Of a DNA stretch of 24,218 nucleotides, positions 7,428 through 23,256 are shown piece after piece. Source of the DNA: a virus (taxonomy: Duplodnaviria > Heunggongvirae > Uroviricota > Caudoviricetes). The notes under the pieces were generated by a model, which was not told where the DNA came from, did not search any database, and saw only the letters and a list, made by a program, of their open reading frames with translations. How positions within the stretch are numbered: position 1 is the first letter of the stretch; every line of letters starts with the position of its first letter. The DNA lies in IMG/VR virus record IMGVR_UViG_2537562231_000018; one strand, given 5' to 3'. Made by a program: the position numbers and the translations under genes.

Positions 7428-8248
7428 CTATCTGGTCACCTTTTTCAGTTGTTGTTCTGCCCATGCTTCTTCAATATCAAACTGCACCACCAGCGTATCG
7501 TAAAAACGTTTAACTGTTTTTTTCCATGTATCAAGAGATATGGCATCGGTTACATTACATATGGCATTAAATGCCTCCGTTGAAGGTAATCTTTCATAGC
7601 CACGACCACCACAACGCTGGCAGTCTCTGATAACAGGCATACCACGTTTTACCGACTCTTCACGATGAATGGCAACACCGCGCCCACGACAATCTTTACA
7701 GGCGGTGGAAACCTCCCCCTTCCCTCCACACTCCGGACAGGCAACTTTTACCACCTCCCTGACTTTTTCCATTCCTCCCAGTAAGACTGATACACGCCTT
7801 TTGTACACTTTGCCCATACTGGCGGCTTACCATCCGGATACTGAATCTTGTTTGTAAAAATCTCGCTTTCAATAAATTTTTTTCCGTGACAGCATGGGCA
7901 CTGTTTTTTGCTCGCCGCGCTCCGGGCATAATCCTCAAACGCATACGAAGCCATAATGCGCATCACTACCGGTTTTATTTCTGCCGGAAGTTTTCTTAAC
8001 GCTGCCACGCGATCACACCGACTGAGAGCGTATTCTGCCAGCAGTTCTGTTGCCCGCTCCCTGTCATTCATACTGATGCCCATTTTCCCAAGGAACGCAG
8101 AAAACCCCATCTCAGCCCGATTCTGTGTCATGCCCTGCGCTGCCATCACATCAGTGATACTCAGCGCATCTTTTGACGTTGAGGCCGATGCATCCGTCAG
8201 ACCCGGTGATTTTGGGGAATAGTATTTTGGTAAATCTTCCAGTTTCAT
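7428..8248 (-). CDS. Q: antitermination protein Q (lambda Q / QuuQ family), split into two overlapping frames by an apparent 1-bp frameshift
   Basis: ORF 7748..8248 (MKLEDLPKYYSPKSP..TDVMAAQGM..SYAFEDYARSAA..CPCCHGKK) aligns with the lambda Q N-terminus; ORF 7428..7817 (..CKDCRGRGVAIHREESVKRGMPVIRDCQRCGGRGYERLP..TWKKTVKRFYDTLVVQ..VTR) aligns with the lambda Q zinc finger and C-terminus. The frames differ by -1 and would join across the A5 run at about 7766..7770. Confidence 0.75.
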
Positions 8249-8619
8249 TCTTTTGCCTGCCAGCCATGCGTTATTTCGTAAATTTTCACACCAAGCCGTC
8301 CGCCTGGAACAGGCAGACCGCGCACAATATTAATTTCATCAAACTGCTCGTCGTCGATAAGTAGTCCTGCATGCGTCAGCGCATCCAGTAGCGCTTTCAG
8401 AATGTTGTCCAGGTCACGACGGCGCTTATCCGGTGGCTCTGCAATAATTTTTATTGTCAGCCTTCCGGGCAGGCTTAATTTCAACCGCTGCTGGCGAACA
8501 ATAAGCGCTACTGCCCGTCGATAGCGCTTTCCCTCCTCAGATATAAAATATGTGCTGCCACGGCGTCGCCAGTAAGTGTTCACCGTCGGCGGGTAAGGTA
8601 AAACCAAATCTATGAGCAT
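8245..8619 (-). CDS. rusA: Holliday junction resolvase RusA
   Basis: 124 aa; YPPTVNTYWRR..; PDKRRRDLDNILKALLDALTHAGLLIDDEQF matches the RusA catalytic region; ATGA overlap with the Q start. Confidence 0.85.
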   Translation of the reverse strand: MLIDLVLPYPPTVNTYWRRRGSTYFISEEGKRYRRAVALIVRQQRLKLSLPGRLTIKIIAEPPDKRRRDLDNILKALLDALTHAGLLIDDEQFDEINIVRGLPVPGGRLGVKIYEITHGWQAKE

Positions 8620-8631
8620 CAGTCACCTCTT

Positions 8632-9681
8632 TTACCCGAGCACGCCAGTCGCAAAGGCGTGATCAAGAAAACGAAAAATTAACTCAACCTGGGACCCGTA
8701 CTTTTTCTCAAACTCCAGCGGGTCAGCATGAAGTTCGTTGTGGTGCTCCCGGCACAACGGTAGCGTGAAAATATCGTGGGATTTTGTCCCCATTCCGCCC
8801 TGACCATGACCAATCAGGTGATGCGGATCGTCGGCTGGCTTACCACAACACACGCACGGCTGTGTCTTTACCCAGCGCGTGTATTTCTCATTTACCCAAC
8901 GGCGACGTTTAGGCCGCTTCATGAACGATTCAGGAGACTCCGGATCAACGGCTATACTGACCACCGCTTTTTTCTGTGGTGGATTTTGTTGCTGGTGGAC
9001 GTGAAGTGGCAGCGCAATATTTTTTGTGCGCTGCTTCAGTATGCTGGTGGCGGTCTGCGCTCCCGGAATGATGTCACTCTCACGATATACGGAGCGGATT
9101 TTTTCCACCGGTAATCCCAGCGAACGACGCAATACAGACTCAGGAAGCGCATCAGCCACCTGATTGCAGACCGCCCACCAGGATAATTCAGCCAGCGATA
9201 ATTCACGTTCCTGTGCGCCATTCATTGCATGCCGAATGACGTCAATCATCCAGGCAACCAGATTCTGTTGAGCAAGTTGCTCCAGTGAATCAGATGTCTG
9301 CTCCCGCAGGTGGTTGTCGCAGTGCCAGCACAACACCATCGCGCCGGTACCGTAACGGTGAATGACGGTTTCGCTGTGATGATAATCGCCGTGTGGCCAC
9401 TGGCAGGATTTCACGTGACGTAATAACCAGTCAGACAGTACACCAGCGCCACCCGCAGCACGGATCACCCGCTCATCGCTGAAAAATGGCAGTAATGATT
9501 TATCTTCCGCCAGCGGCTGGCGAACGGCAGGTACACCCCCAGACGGCAGAGCACGCATGCTTTTCGGTTCCGGCTCCACCAGCACCCTGCCGCAATGAAA
9601 AACAGGCAGTGATTCGCGTCCGGGCTTAAGGACCACCAGGCCAAGTTCCGGCACCAGAACAGGTCGAAGTAATACCCGCAC
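8632..9681 (-). CDS. DUF968-like phage protein (YdfU-like) with C-terminal HNH-like Cys/His motif
   Basis: 349-aa ORF (GTG start; true start may be internal); C-terminal PCVCCGKPADDPHHLIGHGQGGMGTKSHDIFTLPLCREHHNELH; same position as ydfU next to Q in Qin. Confidence 0.5.
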   Translation of the reverse strand: MRVLLRPVLVPELGLVVLKPGRESLPVFHCGRVLVEPEPKSMRALPSGGVPAVRQPLAEDKSLLPFFSDERVIRAAGGAGVLSDWLLRHVKSCQWPHGDYHHSETVIHRYGTGAMVLCWHCDNHLREQTSDSLEQLAQQNLVAWMIDVIRHAMNGAQERELSLAELSWWAVCNQVADALPESVLRRSLGLPVEKIRSVYRESDIIPGAQTATSILKQRTKNIALPLHVHQQQNPPQKKAVVSIAVDPESPESFMKRPKRRRWVNEKYTRWVKTQPCVCCGKPADDPHHLIGHGQGGMGTKSHDIFTLPLCREHHNELHADPLEFEKKYGSQVELIFRFLDHAFATGVLG

Positions 9682-9682
9682 G

Positions 9683-9973
9683 TTACCTCCAGATACGTTG
9701 CTGGAATGTGCGGGACGGACGCGGTGGATGTTCGGAATAAGGGAGCCTGACAGAGATTATCCAGTGACGATAATCGAGGCTGATGGCTTTCTTAACCTCG
9801 TATCCGCGCCTGCGGTAACACTGAATCAGCCATTCGGCCTGTTCTTCAGTGCATGGGGGATGCTGGTACCAGTCGGTTTTAAATACGTGCGAATGCCGCC
9901 CCCGCTTAATGGCCGGGACGGCTTCAGAATTGTGGGATTTTATACGTTGCGCCATCGGGTTCTCCGGTGACAC
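9683..9973 (-). CDS. hypothetical protein (Rem-like by synteny); likely true start ATG at 9955
   Basis: ORF of 96 aa from GTG; ATG at 9955 has GGAG 7 nt upstream; sits between the DUF968 gene and hok as rem does in Qin. Confidence 0.45.
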   Translation of the reverse strand: MSPENPMAQRIKSHNSEAVPAIKRGRHSHVFKTDWYQHPPCTEEQAEWLIQCYRRRGYEVKKAISLDYRHWIISVRLPYSEHPPRPSRTFQQRIWR

Positions 9974-10023
9974 AGCAGGTGCCAGTTGTTCAGGCTGGCG
10001 TGCGAATTGTAAACCAGAATGTC

Positions 10024-10053
10024 AAGAAAAAACAAAACCCGCAGAAGCGGGTT
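10024..10053 (-). terminator. intrinsic terminator at the 3' end of the hok mRNA
   Basis: Minus-strand RNA AACCCGC-UUCU-GCGGGUU followed by UUGUUUUUUCUU. Confidence 0.5.
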
Positions 10054-10121
10054 AAGTGCGGGTGCGTTGAGGATGCCTGACACATCAGAGGTGGCGAGGG
10101 ATTTCTCCCTCGCCGGGTCTC

Positions 10122-10277
10122 TTACTTCTCAGATTCGTAAGCTGTGAAGACAGCGACCTCCGTCTGGCCGGTTCGGATTCGTACCTCGCAGAGGTCTTTC
10201 CTCGTTACCAGTACCGTTACAACGACGGTAATACAGATGACGATCAGGGCGATTAGCATCGCCTTTTGCTGCTTCAT
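10122..10277 (-). CDS. hok: Hok/Gef-family type I toxin (HokD/RelF-like)
   Basis: MKQQKAMLIALIVICITVVVTVLVTRKDLCEVRIRTGQTEVAVFTAYESEK, 51 aa, near-identical in pattern to E. coli Hok/Gef proteins. The tracker ORF is extended upstream in frame to 10334. Confidence 0.85.
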   Translation of the reverse strand: MKQQKAMLIALIVICITVVVTVLVTRKDLCEVRIRTGQTEVAVFTAYESEK

Positions 10278-10325
10278 AGCCTGCTGCTCCTTGCCTTTCG
10301 GCGCGTAAGAGGCTAATCTAAGTGT

Positions 10326-10398
10326 GCAAGTCATAGATATGGCCTCAGATTAATGTTAAGCGTCCTGCAAGACGCATAATGTTAACTGGGGCTTTTCT
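10326..10398 (+). ncRNA. sok: candidate Sok antisense RNA (position and promoter inferred)
   Basis: Plus-strand promoter TTGCCT (10291..10296) -17 bp- TAATCT (10314..10319) faces away from hok and overlaps the hok leader; downstream hairpin GCGTCCTGCAAGACGC and a T-rich stretch. Exact ends not determinable by eye. Confidence 0.3.
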
Positions 10399-10527
10399 CT
10401 GTCTGCCTTACGTCGGCATGCCCGAGGCAGACAGCCTCAAGCACCCGCAGCAATTCTACTTAACTCTCGCTTTACCGCAAACCGTTTTACCCGATATGGG
10501 AATGCCCATATCGCAATGAATTCAGTT

Positions 10528-10626
10528 TCACATCCGATCCATCAAAAACACAACCAGGCAGTAAACGCCCACAACAGAAATAACGGCCAGCGCGCCTTCC
10601 ATTGCCAGTGAAATATCATCCGACAT
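10528..10626 (-). CDS. hypothetical 32-aa hydrophobic peptide
   Basis: MSDDISLAMEGALAVISVVGVYCLVVFLMDRM with a strong AAGGAGGG SD 4 nt upstream of the ATG. Confidence 0.3.
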   Translation of the reverse strand: MSDDISLAMEGALAVISVVGVYCLVVFLMDRM

Positions 10627-10661
10627 ATTCCCTCCTTTGGTGTTAATCCCGGCGAACGTTT

Positions 10662-10745
10662 TTACCCCCACCGACAAATAACATATACTAAAAAAGCGAT
10701 AGCCATAGCAACGCCTGTAATTGCAAATGCTTCAGGCCAGTTCAT
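10662..10745 (-). CDS. hypothetical 27-aa hydrophobic peptide, ATGA-coupled to the upstream gene
   Basis: MNWPEAFAITGVAMAIAFLVYVICRWG; start overlaps the stop of ORF 10742..11311. Confidence 0.25.
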   Translation of the reverse strand: MNWPEAFAITGVAMAIAFLVYVICRWG

Positions 10746-11311
10746 TGGCGCACCTTCTGCGGCGGTTCAGGTAGAAGCATCCGATTGATTACATCGCATT
10801 CAGGGATGCTGATATCATCACCAAGCCATCCTTGACCTTCAGACCAGCATTGCACGTAATACCCGTATTCTGTGTTCACTACGCACCACTGCCCGTCATC
10901 CGGCATTCGCTCACTACAGCTTATCCAACCATCCGGAGTTACCGGATGGTTGGTTGACGTTTCCGAGATTTCCCGAAAATTATTGGTTGACGAACCCTTA
11001 TGTTCCCGAAAGTTTCCAGCCTGAAGCATGGCGGCGCGGTGACACCAGATAATCCAGCCAAGCGCCATATCCCATGCCATGTATTCTCTATCGCCATTTT
11101 TTGCTCTGCGGCGATCTACAGATTCTCCGAAACGCTTCTCCATAAATAATTCATAGGCTGCTCGTTCATCCGATACTGCTGCCAGTGATGCCAGTGCAAT
11201 CCGTGCCAGCTCTTCCGCTTCTTCTGCTGGAAGCACAACGTTGCTACCAGGTCCGTATGTTTCGCGCCACTGCTTGATTGTCAGTAGTCGCTCTTTGGTA
11301 ATAGTGATCAT
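10742..11311 (-). CDS. phage protein with DUF551-like C-terminal domain
   Basis: 189 aa; C-terminal DGWISCSERMPDDGQWCVVNTEYGYYVQCW resembles the DUF551 signature (WIS..D.LP) as recalled. Confidence 0.5.
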   Translation of the reverse strand: MITITKERLLTIKQWRETYGPGSNVVLPAEEAEELARIALASLAAVSDERAAYELFMEKRFGESVDRRRAKNGDREYMAWDMALGWIIWCHRAAMLQAGNFREHKGSSTNNFREISETSTNHPVTPDGWISCSERMPDDGQWCVVNTEYGYYVQCWSEGQGWLGDDISIPECDVINRMLLPEPPQKVRQ

Positions 11312-11823
11312 GCCGCGTTTCCTTCTTTCTTATTAACAATTACACCGTCATATATTTCATTAAGGTGCCCTCTCAACTCCATGCGCCTTAATGCAGATAA
11401 CATGTAATCGCATTCAACCTGCTTATTTCCGGTAAATGGCTTATCGTCAGGATTACCCCAACAGCAATTACCCTTGGGCCACCCATATACTTTCCGTACT
11501 CTTCCGTTAACAACGTGAAGTAATCCCCAGCCAGGTGGTAAATCCTCAATTGAAATAATTCCCGGCTCACTAATAAAGAATCGCCAGTCCCCCATGCCAA
11601 GAGAGGGATTTTTACGGAAACGCTTTTTTCTATCTGCCAACAAGTCAGCACGAGAACACTTCGCCTCTATCAGGCATGATGCTGAATTTCTGAATCCCAT
11701 AGCATCTGGTTGTTCTCCAGTACTGGTTACAGCAACAAAGCGGTCATGAAAGCAAACCTTGAACCCGTTGCGCTTAAGGAACCTGTAGGCAATCTGACAG
11801 AGTTCGCGGTGTGTTAACGCCAT
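11308..11823 (-). CDS. hypothetical protein with PD-(D/E)xK-like nuclease motif
   Basis: 171 aa; GEQPDAMGF..CLIEAKCS fits a PD..ExK active-site spacing; ATGA-coupled to neighbours in the nin-like block. Confidence 0.4.
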   Translation of the reverse strand: MALTHRELCQIAYRFLKRNGFKVCFHDRFVAVTSTGEQPDAMGFRNSASCLIEAKCSRADLLADRKKRFRKNPSLGMGDWRFFISEPGIISIEDLPPGWGLLHVVNGRVRKVYGWPKGNCCWGNPDDKPFTGNKQVECDYMLSALRRMELRGHLNEIYDGVIVNKKEGNAA

Positions 11824-11824
11824 C

Positions 11825-12184
11825 TCATTCTCCTTTGATGCGAATGTTTACAACCTGACAAGCCTCTTTGAGTACCCAGTCAACAGCATCTTTCCATGCA
11901 CCTGTTTCGACGGGTGGATTCTCACGCTTTACCTGTTCATAAAAGCGCACGGCTTTAACTAGTCCTTCTGATGTCACCGGGGCTGGCGGGGCCGTGAATA
12001 ACGCCTGAATTTCATAGTTCGGTCTGTCGTTACAATCTTCTTTTGTCTGGACATATTTCCAGTCACCAGCCCACTGCTTCCCCTGAAAGTCTGTAACGCC
12101 TTTTTTCACGTAGCGATATCGCCATGCCACTGGTTTTGCCTGCCCTGCCTTTTCATGCCCTTCCTGATAATTAATCTCGCTCAT
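11825..12184 (-). CDS. hypothetical phage protein
   Basis: 119-aa ORF, start overlaps the stop of the upstream small ORF; no recognisable motif. Confidence 0.45.
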   Translation of the reverse strand: MSEINYQEGHEKAGQAKPVAWRYRYVKKGVTDFQGKQWAGDWKYVQTKEDCNDRPNYEIQALFTAPPAPVTSEGLVKAVRFYEQVKRENPPVETGAWKDAVDWVLKEACQVVNIRIKGE

Positions 12185-12357
12185 TCATCGCCCCACTCAT
12201 CACAATATGCTTCGACCGGAGTTTTCCCTGCTTCATAATCATCACGCCATGCTTCAGCATCAGCGGCACTTCCACCGCGTAACTCTGCATAATCCATTAA
12301 CAGTTCATGCCATTCTTCAAAACTGGCGTTATATTTAGTTGAACCAAAATCAGCCAT
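12181..12357 (-). CDS. hypothetical small acidic protein (58 aa)
   Basis: MADFGSTKYNASFEEWHELLMDYAELRGGSAADAEAWRDDYEAGKTPVEAYCDEWGDE; start overlaps the stop of 12350..12532 and stop overlaps the start of 11825..12184. Confidence 0.4.
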   Translation of the reverse strand: MADFGSTKYNASFEEWHELLMDYAELRGGSAADAEAWRDDYEAGKTPVEAYCDEWGDE

Positions 12358-12532
12358 TTTGTCCTTCCTCTTCGTCTTTTATTTCGTGGTATGAGTAATT
12401 GCAGTAGTTAAAGAAAATTTCTTTTGCTTCGTCATGAATTTCATCAGGTGTTGCGTCATCATCTACTTCGAATACATCCTCAAAATCTCCACCAGCTATT
12501 CCCGTTTCAATAATTATTTTGAATTTTCGCAT
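12350..12532 (-). CDS. hypothetical small acidic protein (60 aa); tracker ORF extension to 12631 lies inside the IS and is artefactual
   Basis: MRKFKIIIETGIAGGDFEDVFEVDDDATPDEIHDEAKEIFFNYCNYSYHEIKDEEEGQNG; the IS66 left end sits 16 bp upstream of this ATG. Confidence 0.4.
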   Translation of the reverse strand: MRKFKIIIETGIAGGDFEDVFEVDDDATPDEIHDEAKEIFFNYCNYSYHEIKDEEEGQNG

Positions 12533-12629
12533 TTCACTACCGCCATTTGTAAGCGTCGTCTCAGCACCGTCTGGCAGATCCTGAAATTCCTGAGAGAATA
12601 GTGGACACCAAATATGGTGGACGCTATCC

Positions 12630-13034
12630 ATGAAATCATTAACCGCAGTGCGTAAAAAAAGCCCTAATTATCCCGTTGAGTTCAAAATCAAAATGGTTGA
12701 ACTCTCGCATCGACCAGAGATCTCCGTAGCGCAACTCGCTCGTGAGCATGGGATCAACGATAATTTGCTGTTCAAGTGGCGCCAGTACTGGCGCGAAGGA
12801 AAACTACGTCCTCCTTCAACAACAGAAAACAACGTGCCTGAGCTGCTCCCGATAACACTTGATGCCGAAGATGTTGTCCCTACAACCTCCCCCCGGTCAC
12901 AACCTGTAGCTGCTGCGACACCTGAATCACTCAATATCAGCTGTGAAGTGACGTTCCGGCACGGATCACTCCGTCTGAATGGTGCCATCAGCGAAAATAT
13001 CCTGAACCTGCTGATACGGGAGCTCAAACGTTGA
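12630..13034 (+). CDS. IS66-family accessory protein (orfA/TnpA)
   Basis: 134 aa; EFKIKMVELSHRPEISVAQLAREHGINDNLLFKWRQYW HTH region typical of IS66 orfA. Confidence 0.85.
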   Translation: MKSLTAVRKKSPNYPVEFKIKMVELSHRPEISVAQLAREHGINDNLLFKWRQYWREGKLRPPSTTENNVPELLPITLDAEDVVPTTSPRSQPVAAATPESLNISCEVTFRHGSLRLNGAISENILNLLIRELKR

Positions 13035-13378
13035 TCCCATTACCATCAGGGACAAAGATCTGGCTGGTCGCTGGCATCACCGATATGAGAAACGGCTTCA
13101 ACGGCCTGGCGGCAAAGGTGCAGACGACGCTGAAAGACGATCCGATGTCAGGTCACGTTTTTATCTTCCGTGGGCGTAATGGCAGTCAGGTAAAGCTCCT
13201 CTGGTCTACCGGCGATGGACTGTGTCTGCTGACCAAACGGCTGGAGCGCGGCCGCTTCGCCTGGCCGTCAGCCCGGGATGGCAAAGTGTTCCTCACACCG
13301 GCACAGCTGGCGATGCTGCTGGAAGGTATCGACTGGCGGCAGCCTAAAAGACTGCTTACGTCCCTGACTATGTTGTAA
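13031..13378 (+). CDS. IS66-family orfB (TnpB)
   Basis: 115 aa; KIWLVAGITDMRNGFNGLAAKV..HVFIFRGRNG..KLLWSTGDGLCLLTKRLE, the characteristic IS66 orfB pattern; ATGA overlap with orfA. Confidence 0.85.
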   Translation: MIPLPSGTKIWLVAGITDMRNGFNGLAAKVQTTLKDDPMSGHVFIFRGRNGSQVKLLWSTGDGLCLLTKRLERGRFAWPSARDGKVFLTPAQLAMLLEGIDWRQPKRLLTSLTML

Positions 13379-13426
13379 GCCTCTTTATCCTGGTCGACGC
13401 TGAATGAGCCTGGTAATATACCCGGT

Positions 13427-14965
13427 ATGAGCAGCTCACTTCCTGACGATATCAATGCACTGAAACGTCTCCTTGCCGAACAGGAGGCGCTGAACCGTGC
13501 CCTGCAGGAAAAGCTGAACGAGCGTGAACGCGAAATAGACCATCTGCAGGCACAGCTGGATAAGCTGCGCCGGATGAACTTCGGCAGCCGCTCGGAAAAA
13601 GTCTCCCGTCGTATCGCACAGATGGAAGCTGACCTGAAGGCACTTCAGAAAGAAAGTGATACCCTTACCGGTCGGGTTGACGACCCGGCCGTGCAGCGCC
13701 CGCTGCGTCAAACCCGCACCCGCAAACCGTTCCCCGAATCACTCCCCCGCGATGAAAAACGGCTGCTGCCGGCAGCGTCATGCTGCCCGGAATGTGGAGG
13801 CTCGCTGAGCTATCTGGGTGAGGATGCCGCCGAACAGCTGGAGCTGATGCGCAGCGCCTTCCGGGTTATCCGGACTGTACGTGAAAAGCATGCCTGTACT
13901 CAGTGCGATGCCATCGTGCAGGCCCCCGCGCCTTCACGGCCCATCGAGCGGGGTATCGCAGGACCGGGGCTGCTGGCCCGCGTGCTGATCTCAAAGTATG
14001 CAGAGCACACCCCGCTGTACCGCCAGTCTGAAATGTACGGCCGCCAGGGCGTGGAGCTGAGTCGTTCACTGCTGTCGGGCTGGGTGGATGCATGCTGCCG
14101 GCTACTGTCACCGCTGGAAGAAGCGCTTCAGGACTATGTGCTGACTGACGGTAAGCTCCATGCTGATGACACGCCTGTCCCGGTGCTGTTGCCAGGCAAT
14201 AAGAAAACGAAGACCGGGCGGTTATGGACCTACGTTCGTGACGACCGTAACGCCGGGTCAACGCTGGCGCCGGCGGTGTGGTTCGCTTACAGCCCGGACA
14301 GAAAAGGCATCCATCCGCAGACCCATCTTGCGGGGTTCAGTGGTGTACTGCAGGCGGATGCATACGCCGGGTTCAACGAGCTGTACCGGGATGGCCGGAT
14401 AACGGAAGCCGCTTGTTGGGCTCACGCCCGCCGTAAAATCCACGATGTGCACGTTCGCACCCCGTCAGCCCTGACGGAGGAAGCGCTGAAACGGATCGGC
14501 GAACTGTACGCCATCGAGGCAGAGATAAGGGGAATGACGGCGGAGCAGCGCCTTGCCGAACGTCAGTTGAAAACGAAACCGCTGCTGAAATCCCTGGAAA
14601 GCTGGCTGCGTGAAAAGATGAAAACCCTGTCGCGACACTCAGAACTGGCGAAAGCGTTCGCATACGCCCTGAACCAGTGGCCGGCGCTGACGTACTATGC
14701 AGATGATGGCTGGGCTGAGGCGGACAATAACATCGCTGAAAATGCGTTGCGGATGGTCAGTCTGGGCCGCAAAAACTACCTGTTCTTCGGTTCGGATCAT
14801 GGAGGAGAGCGGGGAGCGCTGCTGTACAGCCTGATCGGGACGTGCAAACTGAACGGAGTGGAGCCAGAAAGCTACCTCCGCTATGTCCTTGACGTCATAG
14901 CCGACTGGCCGATAAACCGGGTCGGCGAACTGCTCCCCTGGCGCGTAGCACTGCCGACTGAATAA
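13427..14965 (+). CDS. IS66-family transposase (orfC/TnpC), intact
   Basis: 512 aa; N-terminal coiled coil, CCPECGG..C.QC zinc motif, [27 protein letters not shown] and downstream catalytic region. Confidence 0.9.
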
Positions 14966-15087
14966 CACATCCCCGTCAATACGGTTCTTGCTGCACGCTT
15001 ACCGCCATTTCGAACGGCCTCCTGATGTTCTGAGGGTGCAGAAATCCCTCCGGTTAAGGATTAAATTTTTAACAGTGCTAAATTTAA

Positions 15088-15444
15088 TTATTCAGTTCTT
15101 GATTTTGCCGCCCTGCGTATCCGCGCTTTCGCGTTACGCTCAATCTGAATTAGCTTTTCTATATTTCTCCGCCTTTCCCGTTCCTCCTGGCGCAAGAGCC
15201 TTACATCATCTGCCAGTCTGGTTTCTCTTTTCGCCACAGAGAGCATCCAGTCAAATGGCTCCACAACTGCACCGCAGATTTTACAGCGGACCTGACGCTC
15301 TTTTTCGTCAACCCGGACAGAGGCGTGATGACAATATGGTCTTTCCGATGGCTCATAAAGAAAATTAACCTGATTACGTGGGTCATCCTCTTTTACCGGA
15401 AATAAAACAATATTACTTAACTCATCTTCTGGTTTTATTTCCAT
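15088..15444 (-). CDS. hypothetical zinc-ribbon protein (start chosen at ATG with AAGGAGAGG SD; tracker GTG start at 15501)
   Basis: 118 aa from MEIKPEDELSNIV..; CHH..CKICG motif; strong SD before the ATG at 15444. Confidence 0.45.
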   Translation of the reverse strand: MEIKPEDELSNIVLFPVKEDDPRNQVNFLYEPSERPYCHHASVRVDEKERQVRCKICGAVVEPFDWMLSVAKRETRLADDVRLLRQEERERRRNIEKLIQIERNAKARIRRAAKSRTE

Positions 15445-15501
15445 GCTCCTCTCCTTTGATGCGAATGCCAGCGGCAATTGAAGCCTGATAGCTAATTTCA
15501 C

Positions 15502-15927
15502 TCACAGCACCACCTCCTGAAAATTCCCCTGATAAAACGCCAGCACGCGCTGCATAACTTCGCTCTTCCGGCACTCGCTACAGATTATGTTCTGACGCCT
15601 GTCATAACGACGTATTTCTCCGTCTGGTAACGACCAGATAAGGTCCGGATCAACCACAGGTGTTTTTTTCTTCAGCTTTGCCCTTGAGAGTTTTTTGCGG
15701 GCGTTTTGCCAGTCCTTACGAGCCTGTTCAGACGGGAATAACCCGTAACCAGAGTTGTATACATCACCACTGGCAACCAGCTCTCTGGCGAGAACGCTCA
15801 TCAGATATCTTGTCGCACCTGTCTTGGCTTCCAGTTGCCGTAACGTCTCGCGCCCACTCCGGCGTACTAGCTCAACAACCTGCCCTTTAATTTTTTCTCG
15901 CTCTTCTTGTGTAAAAACTTTTGCCAC
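15502..15927 (-). CDS. hypothetical early-region protein
   Basis: 141 aa from a GTG start with AGGAGG 5 nt upstream; CSEC motif near the C-terminus. Confidence 0.45.
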   Translation of the reverse strand: MAKVFTQEEREKIKGQVVELVRRSGRETLRQLEAKTGATRYLMSVLARELVASGDVYNSGYGLFPSEQARKDWQNARKKLSRAKLKKKTPVVDPDLIWSLPDGEIRRYDRRQNIICSECRKSEVMQRVLAFYQGNFQEVVL

Positions 15928-15967
15928 AAGCCCTCCTGAAAATTACCTCATGACCTGAAATAAACAC

Positions 15968-17053
15968 TTACCCCCTGAAGCCTGGCGGAATTTCGGTATC
16001 CGGTTCAGAAACATGATTCACACAACGCTGGTTGTTCGTGCCGCTTACCGGGAGCAACCAGGGGTTTTCAAAATTCCGGTCCGGTCCAAAAAACGTCGTC
16101 GCTCGCTGAACAAATTCCGTTCCCGTTTTCCCGGTAGTCGCCAGGTATCTTGCGTAACGCCTCACGCCATCCAGCATGGCCTCTGGTGGCACCCCCTCGC
16201 GTAATCTGGCCTTCCAGGCACTGAAAGCGGATTTCTTCGGGTTTGCTCCGGCACGCAACGGGTATTCCCGCCAGACCTGTTCGAACACATCCGGATAATC
16301 CACTCGTCCCACAGGCTGCCCGGTGTTTTCCGGGACTACCTGATCGGCTTCCCGCTGAATGGCGGAATCGGCTTCAGGCTGCTGCAGTTGGTGTGATTGT
16401 TCCGGCTTTGCGGTCATCGCCTGCTGCACAGCGCCCGAATCGGCTTCCGGTGTCGTGCCTGCTGGTTGACCAGGATTGACGTTCTGAACATCCCCTGCCT
16501 GGTTCGTGGCGATTTTTTCGCCATGAAGCATAGTATTTTTATCCTGCTCCTGTTCTTTCTCCTGTTCCTGTTCTTGGCTTAGAAGCCCCTTTAAAGCCTC
16601 TTCGAAGCCCCTTGCTGAATTCCGGCGATTATTCCGCCTCACATCCAGATGGAAATCCGTTTTATATCTGTCGTAAAAGGCTGACAGAAAGGCGTTTTCA
16701 GGTAATGATGCATACTCATTCCTGACACCTGCACAACGGTTATCTCCAGGCTTCAACGTTTCCCCAACCTGCCAGGCTGCCATTTCATGGACCCAGACCA
16801 TCTCGGCATCATGGTCATAGCTACAAAAACCAGCTTCAACAGCCCTTTTAAGCCCCTTCGAAGCCCCTTCCGGACCAAGCCCGGTTTCATGAGCAAGGTA
16901 CAAAACTGGCAGGTAATACAAACCCAACATATTTGCGTGAGGGGATGTCATCAGGTAAAAAGCAACAACTTGCGCTTCTGCACCCGCCTTTCTAAGTTCT
17001 CTCCCCGTTTCTCCCAGCCAGAATCGCGGGGAAACTTTTGCATAATCACGCAT
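15968..17053 (-). CDS. putative replication initiation / replisome-organiser protein
   Basis: 361 aa from ATG 17053 (GAGGTG SD); tracker TTG start at 17074. Assigned by position downstream of the YdaS/YdaT-like genes and a C-terminal region (DVFEQVWREYP..SAFSAWKARL) reminiscent of phage replication proteins; contains a short QEQEQEKEQEQ low-complexity linker. Confidence 0.45.
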   Translation of the reverse strand: MRDYAKVSPRFWLGETGRELRKAGAEAQVVAFYLMTSPHANMLGLYYLPVLYLAHETGLGPEGASKGLKRAVEAGFCSYDHDAEMVWVHEMAAWQVGETLKPGDNRCAGVRNEYASLPENAFLSAFYDRYKTDFHLDVRRNNRRNSARGFEEALKGLLSQEQEQEKEQEQDKNTMLHGEKIATNQAGDVQNVNPGQPAGTTPEADSGAVQQAMTAKPEQSHQLQQPEADSAIQREADQVVPENTGQPVGRVDYPDVFEQVWREYPLRAGANPKKSAFSAWKARLREGVPPEAMLDGVRRYARYLATTGKTGTEFVQRATTFFGPDRNFENPWLLPVSGTNNQRCVNHVSEPDTEIPPGFRG

Positions 17054-17059
17054 GTTCAC

Positions 17060-17095
17060 CTCGTCTGGAGCCAAACCTTCCTCTGGTTATAATCT
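17060..17095 (+). promoter_or_regulatory. candidate promoter for the plus-strand gene 17133..17528
   Basis: Perfect -10 TATAAT at 17088..17093 with a weak -35 (CTGGAG) 17 bp upstream; followed by a strong SD AGGAGG at 17121..17126. Confidence 0.4.
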
Positions 17096-17132
17096 GTGAT
17101 TCACTAATCAACAGAACCAGAGGAGGTTCGAA

Positions 17133-17528
17133 ATGGATTTTGCAACTATCACAAGTAGCGTTGTGTTGAGTGCGTGTGTTGCTGGCGTGGTTTCGCTGGT
17201 TAATGGTGCCTGGCAACGCAAATCGGAACGAACCATTGAAGCGCAACGCCGGGCTGCTGAAGCCAGAGCAAAAATAAGAGAAATGGCTCTCACCCTCGCA
17301 TTGAAAGAATGGGAGCTCCACCAAACCATATCGAAGGCAAAGGGGTATGGTGTCAGCGGCCCAGAAGTTTACGTCTTTCGATACTTTCGTATGCTCAACC
17401 TGATGGAGGAAGACAAATTCACGATTGAAAATCTCAGACTGATCCAGTACGACTCCATGTGTGCTGTTGCAGCAATTCAGGCAGAGATCGAGCGATATCG
17501 GGAGAAAAACGGCCTCCCGATGCCATAA
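17133..17528 (+). CDS. hypothetical membrane-anchored coiled-coil protein, oriented against the surrounding early operon
   Basis: 131 aa; N-terminal TM helix (ITSSVVLSACVAGVVSLVNGAW) then a charged helical region (RKSERTIEAQRRAAEARAKIREMALTLALKEWELHQ..); own -10 and strong SD. Confidence 0.55.
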   Translation: MDFATITSSVVLSACVAGVVSLVNGAWQRKSERTIEAQRRAAEARAKIREMALTLALKEWELHQTISKAKGYGVSGPEVYVFRYFRMLNLMEEDKFTIENLRLIQYDSMCAVAAIQAEIERYREKNGLPMP

Positions 17529-17532
17529 ACAA

Positions 17533-17754
17533 TCAGCGTTTTTCATCTTTCCAAATCCTCATATCAGGCTTGCGCCCAATGAACCGACGAAGACAATTTA
17601 AAGTCCATCGGGTGAAGTAATCCCTGAAACCAAAGAGATACCAGGTGAACAGATTCACGATAAAATGTCCGGCCAGAGCCCCACCAATACCACAGGCAAG
17701 AACAGTAAAAAAATCAGGTAGATTCACAGCCCCCTCCGTCATTGTTAACGCCAT
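17533..17754 (-). CDS. hypothetical small membrane protein
   Basis: 73 aa with a central hydrophobic segment (FFTVLACGIGGALAGHFIVNLFTWYLFGF); 8 nt downstream of the YdaT-like stop; weak SD. Confidence 0.35.
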   Translation of the reverse strand: MALTMTEGAVNLPDFFTVLACGIGGALAGHFIVNLFTWYLFGFRDYFTRWTLNCLRRFIGRKPDMRIWKDEKR

Positions 17755-17762
17755 CCGTGCTT

Positions 17763-18188
17763 TTAGTGCATCACCACGGCATTTCCTGCAGGGCCACCAC
17801 GGTTCATCTGATTGAAACCGGCAATCGCCACTGCGACAAAATCATCAGCGTCTCTCACCAGTCGTTCCCGCGTCTCCACCAGCTCCCGAAAATAGGCTGA
17901 ACTGTGGCTGCGCATTCGGGCCACCAGCAAAGGTGGCATTGCCTTTTCGATCGCTGGTAACAACGCCTGAATTTTTTCAACAGCATCAGGGGTGTCTTTC
18001 TCTACCCAGCGGAAAATTTTCTGTGTATTGCGAGCCAGGGCTTCCGGATGGCTGTCGTCATACAGTTCAGGAAACGTTATACCCAACTCAAAATAAGCCT
18101 GGGTTATTCCAGCTGCTGGAACTTTTTCGCCATCAGGACGCGCCCAGGCATTCATCGCCATGCGGATGTGTTCATGCTTGATTTTCAT
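17763..18188 (-). CDS. ydaT: YdaT-like protein (CII-position gene of Rac-type immunity regions)
   Basis: 141 aa starting MKIKHEHIRMAMNAWARPDGEKVP, the YdaT-family start as I recall it; directly downstream of and overlapping the YdaS-like gene. Confidence 0.6.
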   Translation of the reverse strand: MKIKHEHIRMAMNAWARPDGEKVPAAGITQAYFELGITFPELYDDSHPEALARNTQKIFRWVEKDTPDAVEKIQALLPAIEKAMPPLLVARMRSHSSAYFRELVETRERLVRDADDFVAVAIAGFNQMNRGGPAGNAVVMH

Positions 18189-18453
18189 GAATCAAGCTCC
18201 TAGAAAGTGGTTGTGTTAACGTTTTGGTATCTTCCAGCTCGGGCCAAATATTCATCCAATCAAAAGGCCTTAGTTGCTGACGTGTAACTTCACCATTACT
18301 GGCTCGCTCAATAAGGACACATAACGATGCCCCTAACACTTGACCTTTACTCAATGCCTTTCTTAGATAACCGATGCTGGTACCACACTCGCATGCAAAC
18401 ATACGCTGTTCATCTGACGAAAGAGAATTGAGAAATATTCTTAATTCTTCCAT
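18172..18453 (-). CDS. ydaS: YdaS-like HTH protein (Cro-position regulator)
   Basis: 93 aa; HTH-like segment QRMFACECGTSIGYLRKALSKGQ; AAGGAG SD; divergent from the repressor across an operator-bearing intergenic region. Confidence 0.6.
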   Translation of the reverse strand: MEELRIFLNSLSSDEQRMFACECGTSIGYLRKALSKGQVLGASLCVLIERASNGEVTRQQLRPFDWMNIWPELEDTKTLTQPLSRSLIHENQA

Positions 18454-18482
18454 AGCTACTCCTTAGTAAACACAGCAAAGAA

Positions 18483-18518
18483 TACCCACAGGTAAACAAA
18501 AGTAAATACCCACAGGTT
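18483..18518. promoter_or_regulatory. OR-like operator pair: TACCCACAGGTA (18483..18494) and TACCCACAGGTT (18507..18518), overlapping divergent promoters
   Basis: Two near-palindromic 12-mers 24 bp apart between the YdaS-like and repressor genes; the same motif recurs twice downstream of the repressor gene. Confidence 0.6.
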
Positions 18519-18553
18519 GTTTACCTTGCAGTAATCGCATCTATTATTTACCT

Positions 18554-18972
18554 ATGGACAAATATGAATTTAGACGACAGCAACTCATCAAAATTCGTGA
18601 TGAGAAATGCGATGGTAAAGCGGTTAACGTGGCCAGAAAGATCGGGCGCGAGCCTTCTTATGTATCAAGAATGTTGTACCCAGAGGGGAAAAAGGGAAAA
18701 AACGGATCGCTGATGATATGGTGGAGATTATCGAAGAGTCCTTTGGGTTACCCCGGGGATGGATGGATGGTATCGTTTCATCATCAACGAACACAGCCTC
18801 CAGTTATGAAACAAGGGTTCTAACGCCACGACAACGTATTTTTTTAGATCTCTTAGACGAACTGCCAGAAAGTGAAGCGGATAACTTATTAAAAACTCTT
18901 GAAGAGAAAAAACAGTATTACAATATGATCTACGAAGAAATCCGTAAAAAGAAAGCACAAAACGCATCATAG
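18554..18972 (+). CDS. RacR/cI-type repressor candidate, split by an apparent frameshift at the A6 run 18697..18702
   Basis: ORF 18554..18823 carries an N-terminal HTH (GKAVNVARKIGREPSYVSRML); ORF 18718..18972 continues in the +2 frame. One extra A in the A6 run would join them into a roughly 140-aa protein. The ATG has no SD and sits 7 nt after a TATTAT -10, so the mRNA would be leaderless like lambda cI. Confidence 0.5.
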
Positions 18973-19772: not shown

Positions 19773-20174
19773 TAGCTAACCAACGAAGCTAAGGTTGGTA
19801 ATTAAGGAGTTCTCCACGGGTGAGGTGGAGTGCGTACGCCGGACACGGGTGAGCATCCGGCACTGACAGTTTACTGAAAGGATATTTCCATGAAAAGTCA
19901 GACCATAACGCGAAAGCGCACGGCGAGGTAGCTGGTTCATAGATAACCTGTCGTTAAATTTTCGTCGACCGTGCGCTTCCGGTTGTGGCACTCCGCGAAA
20001 TGGCGCGGCGGTAAGTATGGCGGGGTTATTCCTTCCCCGTTGAGGACATCGGGTTGTCAGGTTGACCATACGCTTAAGTGACAACCCCGCTGCAACGCCC
20101 TCTGTTATCAATTTTCTGGTGACGTTTGGCGGTATCAGTTTTACTCCGTGGCTGCTCTGCCGCCCTTTTTAAAG

Positions 20175-20339: not shown

Positions 20340-20441
20340 ATGGAAACGTTATTACCAAACGTTAATACGTCTGAAGGTTGTTTTGAAATTGGTGTCACTA
20401 TCAGTAACCCTGTATTTACTGAAGATGCCATTAACAAGAGA
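20340..20441 (+). pseudogene. 5' portion (34 codons) of a small gene interrupted by IS66 copy 2; 3' portion at 22982..23068
   Basis: METLLPNVNTSEGCFEIGVTISNPVFTEDAINKR then the IS; joining across the IS and one copy of the target duplication restores a 62-codon ORF whose TGA overlaps the ATG of the downstream gene at 23065. Confidence 0.45.
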
Positions 20442-20526
20442 GTAAGCGTAAACTGACCGCCGTATGTAGCCATCAGACGAGAATTGGTAACTTAGACGCC
20501 CATCTGATATAGACGGACATCTAAGT

Positions 20527-20952
20527 ATGGAATTACAGGACTGGCGAAAAGAACCTCGTAAAAACTATTCGAATGAATTCAAACTTCGTATGGTGGAACT
20601 GGCATCACAACCTGGAGCTTGTGTTGCACAGATTGCACGTGAAAATGGCGTCAATGATAATGTTATTTTCAAATGGCTCAGGCTCTGGCAGAACGAAGGG
20701 CGTGTTTCGCGGCGTCTTCCGGTAACGACCTCTTCTGACACTGGCGTTGAATTATTACCTGTAGAAATAACGCCGGATGAGCAGAAAGAACCTGTGGCGG
20801 CCATTGCGCCGTCTTTATCCACTTCCACTCAGACCAGAGTCAGTGCCAGTTCCTGCAAGGTGGAATTCCGTCACGGTAACATGACGCTGGAAAATCCATC
20901 GCCAGAGCTGCTCACAGTGTTGATCCGTGAACTGACCGGGAGGGGAAGATGA
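20527..20952 (+). CDS. IS66-family accessory protein (orfA), copy 2
   Basis: 141 aa; EFKLRMVELASQPGACVAQIARENGVNDNVIFKWLRLW. Confidence 0.85.
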   Translation: MELQDWRKEPRKNYSNEFKLRMVELASQPGACVAQIARENGVNDNVIFKWLRLWQNEGRVSRRLPVTTSSDTGVELLPVEITPDEQKEPVAAIAPSLSTSTQTRVSASSCKVEFRHGNMTLENPSPELLTVLIRELTGRGR

Positions 20953-21299
20953 TCTCACTCCCATCAGGTACCCGTATCTGGCTCGTTGCCGGCGTTACCG
21001 ATATGCGTAAATCCTTCAACGGACTGGGAGAACAGGTACAACATGTGCTGAATGATAATCCCTTCTCCGGTCACCTGTTTATCTTCCGTGGCCGACGGGG
21101 TGACACCGTCAAAATTCTTTGGGCTGATGCTGATGGTCTGTGCCTGTTCACCAAACGCCTGGAGGAAGGCCAGTTTATCTGGCCTGCGGTACGTGACGGC
21201 AAGGTATCCATTACCCGCTCGCAACTGGCAATGCTCCTCGATAAGCTGGACTGGCGTCAGCCAAAAACTTCCAGCCGTAACTCACTGACAATGTTGTAA
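20949..21299 (+). CDS. IS66-family orfB (TnpB), copy 2
   Basis: 116 aa; RIWLVAGVTDMRKSFNGLGEQV..HLFIFRGRRGDTVKILWADADGLCLFTKRLE. Confidence 0.85.
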   Translation: MISLPSGTRIWLVAGVTDMRKSFNGLGEQVQHVLNDNPFSGHLFIFRGRRGDTVKILWADADGLCLFTKRLEEGQFIWPAVRDGKVSITRSQLAMLLDKLDWRQPKTSSRNSLTML

Positions 21300-21329
21300 A
21301 AAACTCCTGACCGCATTATAAAAACGGTC

Positions 21330-22943
21330 ATGAGTCAGAAATACCTCATTCGCATCGCAGAGCTGGAAAGGTTGCTCTCTGAGCAGGCTGAAGCCCTCCG
21401 TCAGAAAGACCAGCAACTGAGTCTGGTTGAAGAGACGGAAGCCTTCCTGCGCTCTGCACTGACACGTGCCGAAGAAAAGATCGAAGAAGATGAACGGGAA
21501 ATAGAACATCTGCGGGCTCAGATAGAAAAACTGCGCCGGATGCTGTTCGGTACCCGTTCTGAAAAACTGCGTCGTGAAGTTGAACTGGCTGAGGCTCTGC
21601 TGAAACAACGTGAACAGGACAGCGATCGTTAACAGTGGGCGGGAAGACGATCCTCAGGTTCCCCGCCAGTTGCGACAGTCGCGCCATCGTCGTCCGTTAC
21701 CGGCACACCTTCCCCGTGAAATACACCGCCTGGAGCCAGAAGAAAGCTGTTGCCCGGAGTGTGGCGGTGAGCTGGATTATCTGGGGGAAGTCAGCGCAGA
21801 ACAACTGGAACTGGTGAGCAGCGCCCTAAAAGTGATCCGCACAGAACGGGTAAAAAAAGCCTGTACAAAATGTGACTGCATCGTTGAAGCACCGGCACCA
21901 TCCCGCCCGATAGAGCGTGGTATCGCGGGCCCGGATTACTTGCCCGCGTGTTAACGGGAAAATACTGCGAACATCTGCCACTGTATCGTCAGAGTGAAAT
22001 CTTTGCCCGCCAGGGTGTCGAACTGAGCCGGGCCTTACTCTCCAACTGGGTTGACGCGTGCTGCCAGTTAATGACACCGGTGAATGATGCCCTGTACCGT
22101 TATGTAATGAACACCCGCAAGGTTCACACTGATGACACACCGGTAAAGGTACTGGCACCGGGTCAGAAAAAGGCGAAAACAGGGCGTATCTGGACGTATG
22201 TCCGGGATGATCGCAATGTGGGTTCGTCATCTCCTCCAGCGGTCTGGTTCGCGTACTCGCCGAACCGGCAGGGGAAACACCCGGAGCAACACCTCCGCCC
22301 CTTCCGGGGTATCCTGCAGGCGGATGCGTTCACAGGTTACGACAGGTTGTTCAGTGCAGAACGTGAAGGTGGTGCACTGACAGAAGTTGCGTGCTGGGCC
22401 CATGCCCGGCGAAAAATCCACGATGTATACATCAGCAGCAAAAGTGCGACGGCAGAAGAAGCCCTGAAGCGAATCAGTGAACTGTACGCCATCGAGGATG
22501 AAATACGGGGATTACCGGAGTCAGAGCGTCTTGCCGTCAGGCAGCAGCGAAGCAAAGTGTTACTGACGTCGCTGCATGAATGGATGGTGGAGAAGAATGG
22601 TACGCTGTCGAAAAAATCCAGACTGGGCGAAGCGTTCAGCTATGTACTGAATCAGTGGGATGCCCTCTGTTATTACAGTGATGACGGTCTGGCGGAGGCG
22701 GATAATAATGCTGCGGAAAGAGCGCTTCGTGCAGTCTGTCTAGGAAAGAAAAACTTTATGTTCTTTGGCAGCGATCACGGCGGCGAGCGTGGAGCACTGT
22801 TGTACGGGCTGATCGGCACCTGCCGTCTGAACGGTATCGATCCGGAAGCGTATCTGCGCCATATCCTGAGCGTACTGCCGGAATGGCCTTCCAACCGAGT
22901 TGACGAACTCCTGCCATGGAACGTAGTACTCACCAATAAATAA
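21330..22943 (+). pseudogene. IS66-family transposase (orfC) broken into three ORFs by two frameshifts
   Basis: ORFs 21330..21632, 21610..21954 and 21948..22943 together align along the copy-1 TnpC; the second break coincides with a G-run (GGCCCGGATTAC where copy 1 has the equivalent of GGCCCGGGATTAC). Confidence 0.8.
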
Positions 22944-23064
22944 GCGTCAATACGGTGCTCCGTTGACGCTTACACAAGAGAAAACACGAACGGGAGTTAT
23001 TAAATAAAATATGCATTCTTTCAATGCTGGCCCGTTTACGTCCGATACAAAAAGGATGCTGGCA

Positions 23065-23256
23065 ATGAATACAGCATTTGCACTTGTTCTGACAGTTTTT
23101 CTTGTTTCCGGAGAGCCAGTTGATATTGCAGTCAGTGTTCACAGGACAATGCAGGAGTGTATGACTGCAGCAACCGAACAGAAAATTCCCGGTAACTGTT
23201 ACCCGGTCGATAAAGTTATTCACCAGGATAATATCGAAATCCCGGCAGGTCTTTAA
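23065..23256 (+). CDS. hypothetical small secreted protein (63 aa, signal peptide)
   Basis: MNTAFALVLTVFLVSGEPVDIAVSV.. with AAGGA SD; tracker ORF starts further upstream at 23011. Confidence 0.45.
   Translation: MNTAFALVLTVFLVSGEPVDIAVSVHRTMQECMTAATEQKIPGNCYPVDKVIHQDNIEIPAGL

Follow-up and report, generated by a model that had tools for sequence, protein, structure and literature searches.

The window analysed here, a stretch of 24,218 nucleotides, corresponds in full to draft contig ADUM01000122.1 (assembly GCA_000184765.2, E. coli 3431), and it carries on its minus strand a lambda-family Q antiterminator gene (7428..8248) that is broken into two overlapping open reading frames. The first of these (8248..7748, 166 aa, equivalent to EFU95411.1) and the second (7817..7428, 129 aa) share the 70 nt from 7748 to 7817, and their starts are 431 nt apart, that is 2 mod 3, which places them in frames that differ by one. 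Both were matched by the Pfam family PF03589 "Antitermination protein Q" with E-values of 4e-22 for the N-terminal and 3e-29 for the C-terminal ORF. Upstream of Q on the same strand lie a RusA gene (8245..8619) and then a gene for a DUF968 protein (8632..9681). At this position relatives carry one coding sequence (WP_000762896.1 and others), and the locus comprises one gene, which codes for a lambda-family Q antiterminator of the long form, an ordinary and well-known prophage late-gene switch. As a minor observation, the PF03589 model spans only 87 positions and aligns over its full length with each half of Q proteins, lambda Q included (two stretches). The double match is taken as a property of the model and not as an internal duplication.

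The frame is broken at an A5 run at 7764-7768 (minus strand GGAATGG-AAAAA-GTC, a T5 run on the plus strand), where the aligned relatives have A6. On the minus strand the junction reads ...TGG GAG GAA TGG AAA AAG TCA GGG AGG TGG TAA, and the N-terminal ORF accordingly ends with a five-residue out-of-frame tail, SGRW*. The C-terminal ORF is in the true Q frame only from 7763 downward. It shortens to 114 aa if begun at the internal ATG at 7772-7770, and this 114-aa version is the one that gene callers choose in other assemblies. The gene measures 821 nt in the window versus a continuous coding sequence of 822 nt, encoding exactly 273 aa, in relatives. Unlike the window, the intact alleles WP_000762896.1 and WP_121367634.1 have A6 and this uninterrupted frame, which is present in all close relatives. 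Alignment to strain D1 revealed exactly two differences, A5 versus A6 and a C>A substitution at 7788 (Pro154Gln). When one A was restored, the encoded protein was identical to the RefSeq protein WP_121367634.1, Gln154 included, so the split of the ORFs is no chance pattern. A preliminary description, made from the sequence alone, had proposed a single Q gene divided between two frames with a 70-nt overlap, a -1 difference at the A5 run and an implied length of about 273 aa, all of which the ORF coordinates, the Pfam matches and the coding sequences of the relatives bear out. The substitution at 7788 is a rare real polymorphism. We ruled out that it forms a local cluster of errors together with the deletion, because the A at 7788 is also found in the independent intact allele WP_121367634.1 (GCA_003651345.1).

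The repaired protein aligned with lambda Q in the PDB (7ubm_Q, E 7e-41) in two blocks, residues 1-113 with lambda residues 1-113 and residues 182-273 with lambda residues 116-207, leaving a 68-aa insert (residues 114-181). In lambda Q, residues 1-44 form the N-terminal torus or "nozzle" in the RNA-exit channel, a four-helix body (61-113 and 153-207) contains the helix-turn-helix, and residues 114-152 make up the zinc-ribbon arm (PMC9388147). By these domain limits the insert is placed at the junction of body and arm. As the preliminary description had it, the N-terminal ORF is lambda-Q-like (it holds the torus segment and the first half of the body) and carries a first CxxC motif (CPCC, 7889-7900, minus strand), and the C-terminal ORF supplies a lambda-like zinc finger and tail. 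This second ORF contains the zinc-ribbon arm, the second half of the body and the other three CxxC motifs (7728-7739, 7689-7700, and 7611-7622, minus strand). Two of the four CxxC motifs are added by the insert, and all eight cysteines (117, 120, 171, 174, 184, 187, 210, and 213) are invariant among 49 homologues, down to 55% identity. The lambda-type Cys4 site of the arm is represented by C184, C187, C210, and C213, which would bind zinc as in lambda Q. An intact relative modelled with AlphaFold (mean pLDDT 81.5) matched 7ubn_Q in a Foldseek search (E 2.7e-14, TM 0.73), and its insert was predicted as a long beta-hairpin with strands at 125-136 and 159-170. The model therefore suggests a zinc-ribbon arm enlarged by a 68-aa beta-hairpin that is predicted to be clamped by a second Cys4 site. 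The frame break comes directly behind Lys161, where the second strand of this hairpin begins, and lies between the two CxxC pairs presumed to build the extra zinc site.

Continuous homologues of 260-277 aa were found in E. coli, Salmonella, Klebsiella, Enterobacter, Citrobacter, Serratia, and Pantoea. We also considered two truly separate genes at this position and ruled them out, as every homologue checked was continuous; this reading is also opposed by the location of the break, which interrupts a predicted beta-strand lying between CxxC motifs that pair in one zinc site. The long form is defined by an insert of about 45-70 aa after a ...DY.RSAA motif with two extra conserved CxxC motifs, and the window product has this layout in an alignment that took in YdfT, lambda Q, and Klebsiella and Salmonella homologues. 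The K-12 Qin protein YdfT/QuuQ (b1559, 250 aa) is of the same long form (39% identity, BLASTP E 4e-59) and likewise has an extra CxxC pair (CEHC...CQHC) and a DUF968 gene (ydfU) upstream, in keeping with the QuuQ-like form with an additional CxxC module that had been suggested for this gene. Unlike the window gene, however, YdfT has an insert about 23 aa shorter, lacks a RusA gene between ydfU and ydfT, and is encoded by a continuous ORF. Compared with lambda Q (PDB 4MO1, 7UBJ-7UBN; PF03589) the fold is the same and the Cys4 site of the arm is common to both, whereas the 68-aa insert with its two extra invariant CxxC motifs and predicted long hairpin and the broken reading frame set the window gene apart. 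Every tested feature that defines lambda Q or the long form is present, except for the continuous frame. Searches of the PDB by sequence and by fold gave only lambda Q, and no solved structure of a long-form Q was found. The subfamily itself is of modest interest, being abundant in Enterobacteriaceae and having a second Cys4 site and a beta-hairpin extension of the arm that contacts DNA and sigma.

Resemblance to the cysteine-rich domain of DnaJ (PF00684) was also noted, since Q has four CxxCxGxG-type motifs (CPCCHGKK, CPECGGKG, CKDCRGRG, and CQRCGGRG) and matched the Pfam model with 30.6-37.3 bits, around its 32.7-bit cutoff; a match near the cutoff was also obtained with the C-terminal ORF. 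Unlike DnaJ, Q has neither a J domain nor a client-binding domain, and the module is embedded in the Q body. The likeness is at the level of motifs only, and the fold search gave DnaJA2 at an E-value of about 1.

Directly downstream of the Q stop codon we identified a qut-type late control region on the minus strand. Alignment with lambda pR' and with other long-Q loci revealed a pR'-like promoter (7395..7422) composed of a -35 element TTGATT (7422-7417), a 16-nt spacer that is presumed to be the region of the Q-binding element, and an extended -10 element TGnTAAATT (7400-7395). A generic promoter scan had missed it, with 8 of 12 matches and a score under the threshold. In the initial transcribed region, AACGAT (7383..7388) is a -10-like counterpart of the sigma-dependent pause element of lambda qut, to which a role in pausing can be ascribed by analogy with lambda (PMC9388147), and the longer AACGATGGG (7388-7380) recurs unchanged in lambda and in K-12 Qin. 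It is followed by a tR'-like intrinsic terminator (7323..7347) with a 7-bp G+C stem and T7, which is kept in other long-Q loci and is the putative target of Q readthrough. The window Q thus adjoins a module of TAAATT -10, AACGATGGG pause element and terminator like that of lambda pR'-qut-tR', although the promoter spacer, where the Q-binding element is expected, differs in sequence from that of lambda, and the terminator is reached after a much shorter leader (about 55 nt). Further downstream on the minus strand come a TerB pseudogene, DUF3927, an intact nanS-p (616 aa), holin, lysozyme, Rz, and terminase genes.

By homology with lambda Q, an intact 273-aa Q would bind its site in this pR'-like promoter, load onto RNA polymerase paused at AACGAT, form its N-terminal nozzle in the RNA-exit channel, and carry the polymerase through the terminator at 7347-7323 into nanS-p, holin, lysozyme, Rz, and terminase. 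If the break is real, the 166-aa piece would correspond to the nozzle and half of the body without the second body half (lambda 153-207), and the 114/129-aa piece to the zinc-ribbon arm and the second body half without the nozzle. By the lambda data, neither fragment could work alone. A prophage with such a frameshift could not express its nanS-p, lysis or packaging genes on induction.

The distribution of the two alleles was examined in public genomes. Among 5,426 complete E. coli genomes, a megablast search with positions 7400-8300 gave matches in 2,497; a genome had as many as four copies, always as one "antitermination protein" coding sequence, and the best matches spanned 902 nt versus the 901 nt of the query. 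In strains D1 and O157:H7 SS TX 754-1, for example, the Q coding sequence has 822 nt and encodes 273 aa. No A5 allele was found among the approximately 2,500 copies in the 5,426 complete E. coli genomes. A 72-nt query, which alone was unable to separate A5 from A6, matched 2,504 places, none of them with at least 99% identity. A 49-nt query specific for A5 and designed not to seed on A6 still gave three matches (47 record nt to 46 query bases), of which the one inspected (H83) was an intact 822-nt coding sequence and the other two were judged by their span only.

Among closer relatives, nine other contigs whose RusA protein is identical to that of the window were aligned with it over 3.2-5.4 kb. 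In each of them Q has 273 aa, and the mismatches to the window number 1-29 (1-3 for six contigs). The nearest relative, L044 (GCA_003651345.1), shares the A at 7788 and has A6; it differs by two mismatches and this gap in 4.8 kb (99.94% identity). WP_000762896.1, which differs from the repaired window product only by Pro154, was found on 340 contigs. A6 was present in L028, L030-L039, and L041-L044, and the change from A6 to A5 occurred only in ADUM01000122.1 within this comparison. At the level of protein clusters, full-length Q is represented by clusters of 4,648 and 3,739 member sequences versus 76 truncated members.

Truncations that end in the same WKKSGRW* recur in other public records, and as proof of a real allele they gave mixed results. 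Assemblies of one truncated group, P0002, differ from each other by 4-13 gaps versus 0-14 mismatches in 6.5 kb, almost all in homopolymers; some of the public "truncated Q" records are thus homopolymer-error-rich assemblies in which gaps equal or exceed mismatches. The other group, P0004 (L018-L027, from other strains), is clean. It consists of a distinct long-Q allele, next to an N6/N4 DNA methyltransferase gene, that bears the same A6>A5 change and was assembled identically from at least nine independent read sets. Relative to L020, seven of the nine other read sets had no gaps and 0-1 mismatch, and the remaining two were about 3% divergent. This allele is a probable genuine Q pseudogene that circulates in one lineage. 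The A6 tract is therefore an error hot spot and also a genuine, rare mutational target.

In another reading the split is functional: full-length Q would arise on AAA-AAG by a -1 ribosomal frameshift or by slippage in transcription, or two separate genes would give products that cooperate. We regard this as very improbable. In its favour, if tRNA-Lys slipped by -1 from AAG to AAA at 7768-7763, the wild-type ...EEWKK-VREVV... would be restored, and an ATG at 7772-7770 preceded by GGGAGG could begin a 114-aa C-terminal product. Moreover, A_AA.G is the most shift-prone tetramer in E. coli, but tetramers without a stimulator yield about 0.15% frameshifting versus a background of 0.11% (PMC4066793). 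The zero-frame TGG AAA AAG offers the tetramer only and no X_XXZ_ZZN heptamer, and the predicted RNA fold of 7690-7790 is no more structured than shuffled sequence (z = -0.42). Shine-Dalgarno-like elements stimulate -1 shifts at a spacing of 10-14 nt, whereas the GGGAGG here lies 5 nt from the AAA codon; its distance of 1 nt from the ATG is likewise too short for normal initiation. Nor is the arrangement conserved: homologues in taxa from E. coli to Serratia and Pantoea have an unbroken frame, the sister assemblies of the same prophage have A6, truncated members are few beside the full-length clusters, and the Lys-Lys codons are not kept in other genera. On the grounds of the lone tetramer, the missing stimulatory structure, the spacing and the lack of conservation, a programmed or leaky -1 frameshift was ruled out.

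To place the missing base in context, the window was compared with three sister assemblies that have the same prophage and the same IS66 insertion, are 99.75-99.8% identical to positions 1-18619, and in one case have the prophage on a 5.29-Mb contig. At nine indel events all three sisters share one state and the window has another. These comprise seven single-base deletions (at 7764-8, 4406-8, 2972-4, 2906-7, 2280, 1747-53, and 1455-7), six of them in homopolymers, one single-base insertion (4353), and the loss of a 6-nt repeat unit (3925-31). Private substitutions number about 21, with nine in a patch at 2211-2314, four within 62 nt of the contig end, and nine isolated. The missing A of Q hence belongs to a contig-wide excess of similar private indels, all nine of which lie within 1-7768 and none in 7769-18619.

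These indels frameshift PerC, Rz and a 60-aa ORF in the window only. A T4>T3 change at 1455-1457 (plus strand), private to the window, shifts the frame of the PerC-family gene (minus strand, about 1335-1645) and gives an ORF of 129 aa by the ORF listing (124 aa as called in the assembly) versus 104 aa (WP_001303878.1) in relatives. In the Rz gene (about 2113-2579, minus strand) the private deletion at 2280-2281, inside the nine-substitution patch, shifts Rz into the frame of the embedded Rz1, and the result is called as a 128-aa product with Phage_lysis and Rz1 Pfam matches, compared to a 155-aa Rz in the sister assemblies. The deletion at 2906-7 removes the start region of the conserved 60-aa ORF. 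The YdfR/DUF1327 gene (3648-3986, minus strand) loses in frame, at 3925-3931, one unit of a tandem TTACTG/ACAGTA repeat and encodes 112 instead of 114 aa. Four of the nine indels, at 2972-2974, 1747-1753, 4406-4408, and 4353, are intergenic, and one of these is an A8>A7 change.

The likely cause of the missing A, in our view, is a homopolymer under-call or mis-assembly in this draft contig. The change is a private loss of one base in a homopolymer at which independent assemblies of the same prophage agree on A6, and the nine private indel events compare with nine isolated private substitutions and affect conserved coding sequence. Mutation accumulation in E. coli leads one to expect roughly one indel to ten substitutions under neutral decay. 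A ratio of about 1:1, with indels in conserved coding sequence, is not like natural divergence. A technical error is thus favoured because the base is private, the nearest relative and three sisters are intact, and eight other private indels lie on the same contig. Furthermore, the late region tends to be alike among the lambdoid prophages of one genome, so that paralogous reads could have been mixed in 1-7768. The 2010-era draft of E. coli 3431 may have been made by 454 pyrosequencing; a search for literature on strain 3431 and its sequencing platform found nothing. If the cause is technical, E. coli 3431 itself probably has an intact Q.

Some observations speak against an artefact. The same A6>A5 change is clean in at least nine independent read sets of another lineage, which means that it occurs in nature, and the right-hand 10.8 kb of the 18.6 kb compared is without private indels, so the record is not uniformly poor. 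In addition, several of the private deletions are in short runs of 3-4 bases, which is less typical of consensus errors.

These observations lead to the main rival explanation, in which a real replication-slippage event from A6 to A5 made Q a pseudogene in strain 3431; we consider this rather unlikely. Transcripts from pR' would then stop at the terminator, the late genes would be silent, and a prophage already damaged by insertion sequences would be locked in. Such decay is plausible for a prophage that already has two IS66-family insertions (12.6-15.0 kb, and 20442-22973 in dicB) and a TerB pseudogene, and clean, reproducible A5 alleles exist elsewhere in the P0004 lineage. A loss of function would also agree with the lambda Q domain data, which indicate that both halves are needed (PMC9388147). 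All private indels are in Q or in the Q-dependent late region, as relaxed selection after the loss of Q might predict, but four of the nine fall between genes, where weaker selection on the late genes would make no difference. The indel-to-isolated-substitution ratio of about 1:1 likewise departs from the neutral expectation given above, the nearest relative is intact at 99.94% identity, and A5 was in none of the 5,426 complete E. coli genomes searched.

A broader version of this idea is that the A6 tract in E. coli long-form Q is a recurrent natural off-switch, a one-base contraction of which silences the late operon and locks prophages. On this view the contraction would have arisen several times independently, once in the window, given that A5 is seen on several allelic backgrounds and reproducibly so in one lineage. 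We think this improbable.

With a technical error as the preferred explanation, the organism itself probably does not have the split, and everything at the locus belongs to known kinds. The suggestion that late-gene antitermination would be defective in this prophage is not supported as a trait of the organism, for the missing base is private to the draft record and both the nearest relative and the sister assemblies are intact. The practical consequence is one of annotation, namely that a Q gene found split in a draft should not lead to the prophage being called defective. A loss of Q, if real, would be a common and expected route of prophage domestication.

Further features of the prophage were observed in the remainder of the window. 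The TerB-family gene (6831-7190, minus strand) has an internal stop that is also present in relatives (annotated as a RefSeq pseudogene), which marks it as an inherited defect and not one specific to this record. An IS66-family element of about 12600-15000 lies in the early region of the prophage, with plus-strand ORFs for TnpA, TnpB, and a 512-aa transposase (12630-13034, 13031-13378, and 13427-14965). An identical insertion in L038, L039, L041, and L043 marks a shared prophage lineage. A second IS66-family element (20442-22973) is ISEc23-like, shares 99.5% identity with a copy in strain HCP5S3_I4, and interrupts dicB, whose flanks are at 20340-20441 and 22970-23065; its transposase is spread over three ORFs (+1 at 21631, -1 at 21930). 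A gene for a 139-aa hypothetical protein, possibly a repressor (18554-18969, plus strand), is divergent from regulator and YdaT genes and is apparently frameshifted at 18689 (A6>A5) relative to strain PS1Thumoskin9, the sole reference. Finally, three RNAs scored above the Rfam gathering threshold: the sok antitoxin RNA next to hokD (10272-10446, minus strand), the sRNA STnc100 just upstream of nanS-p (6487-6659, minus strand), and DicF RNA upstream of the interrupted dicB (20114-20165, plus strand).
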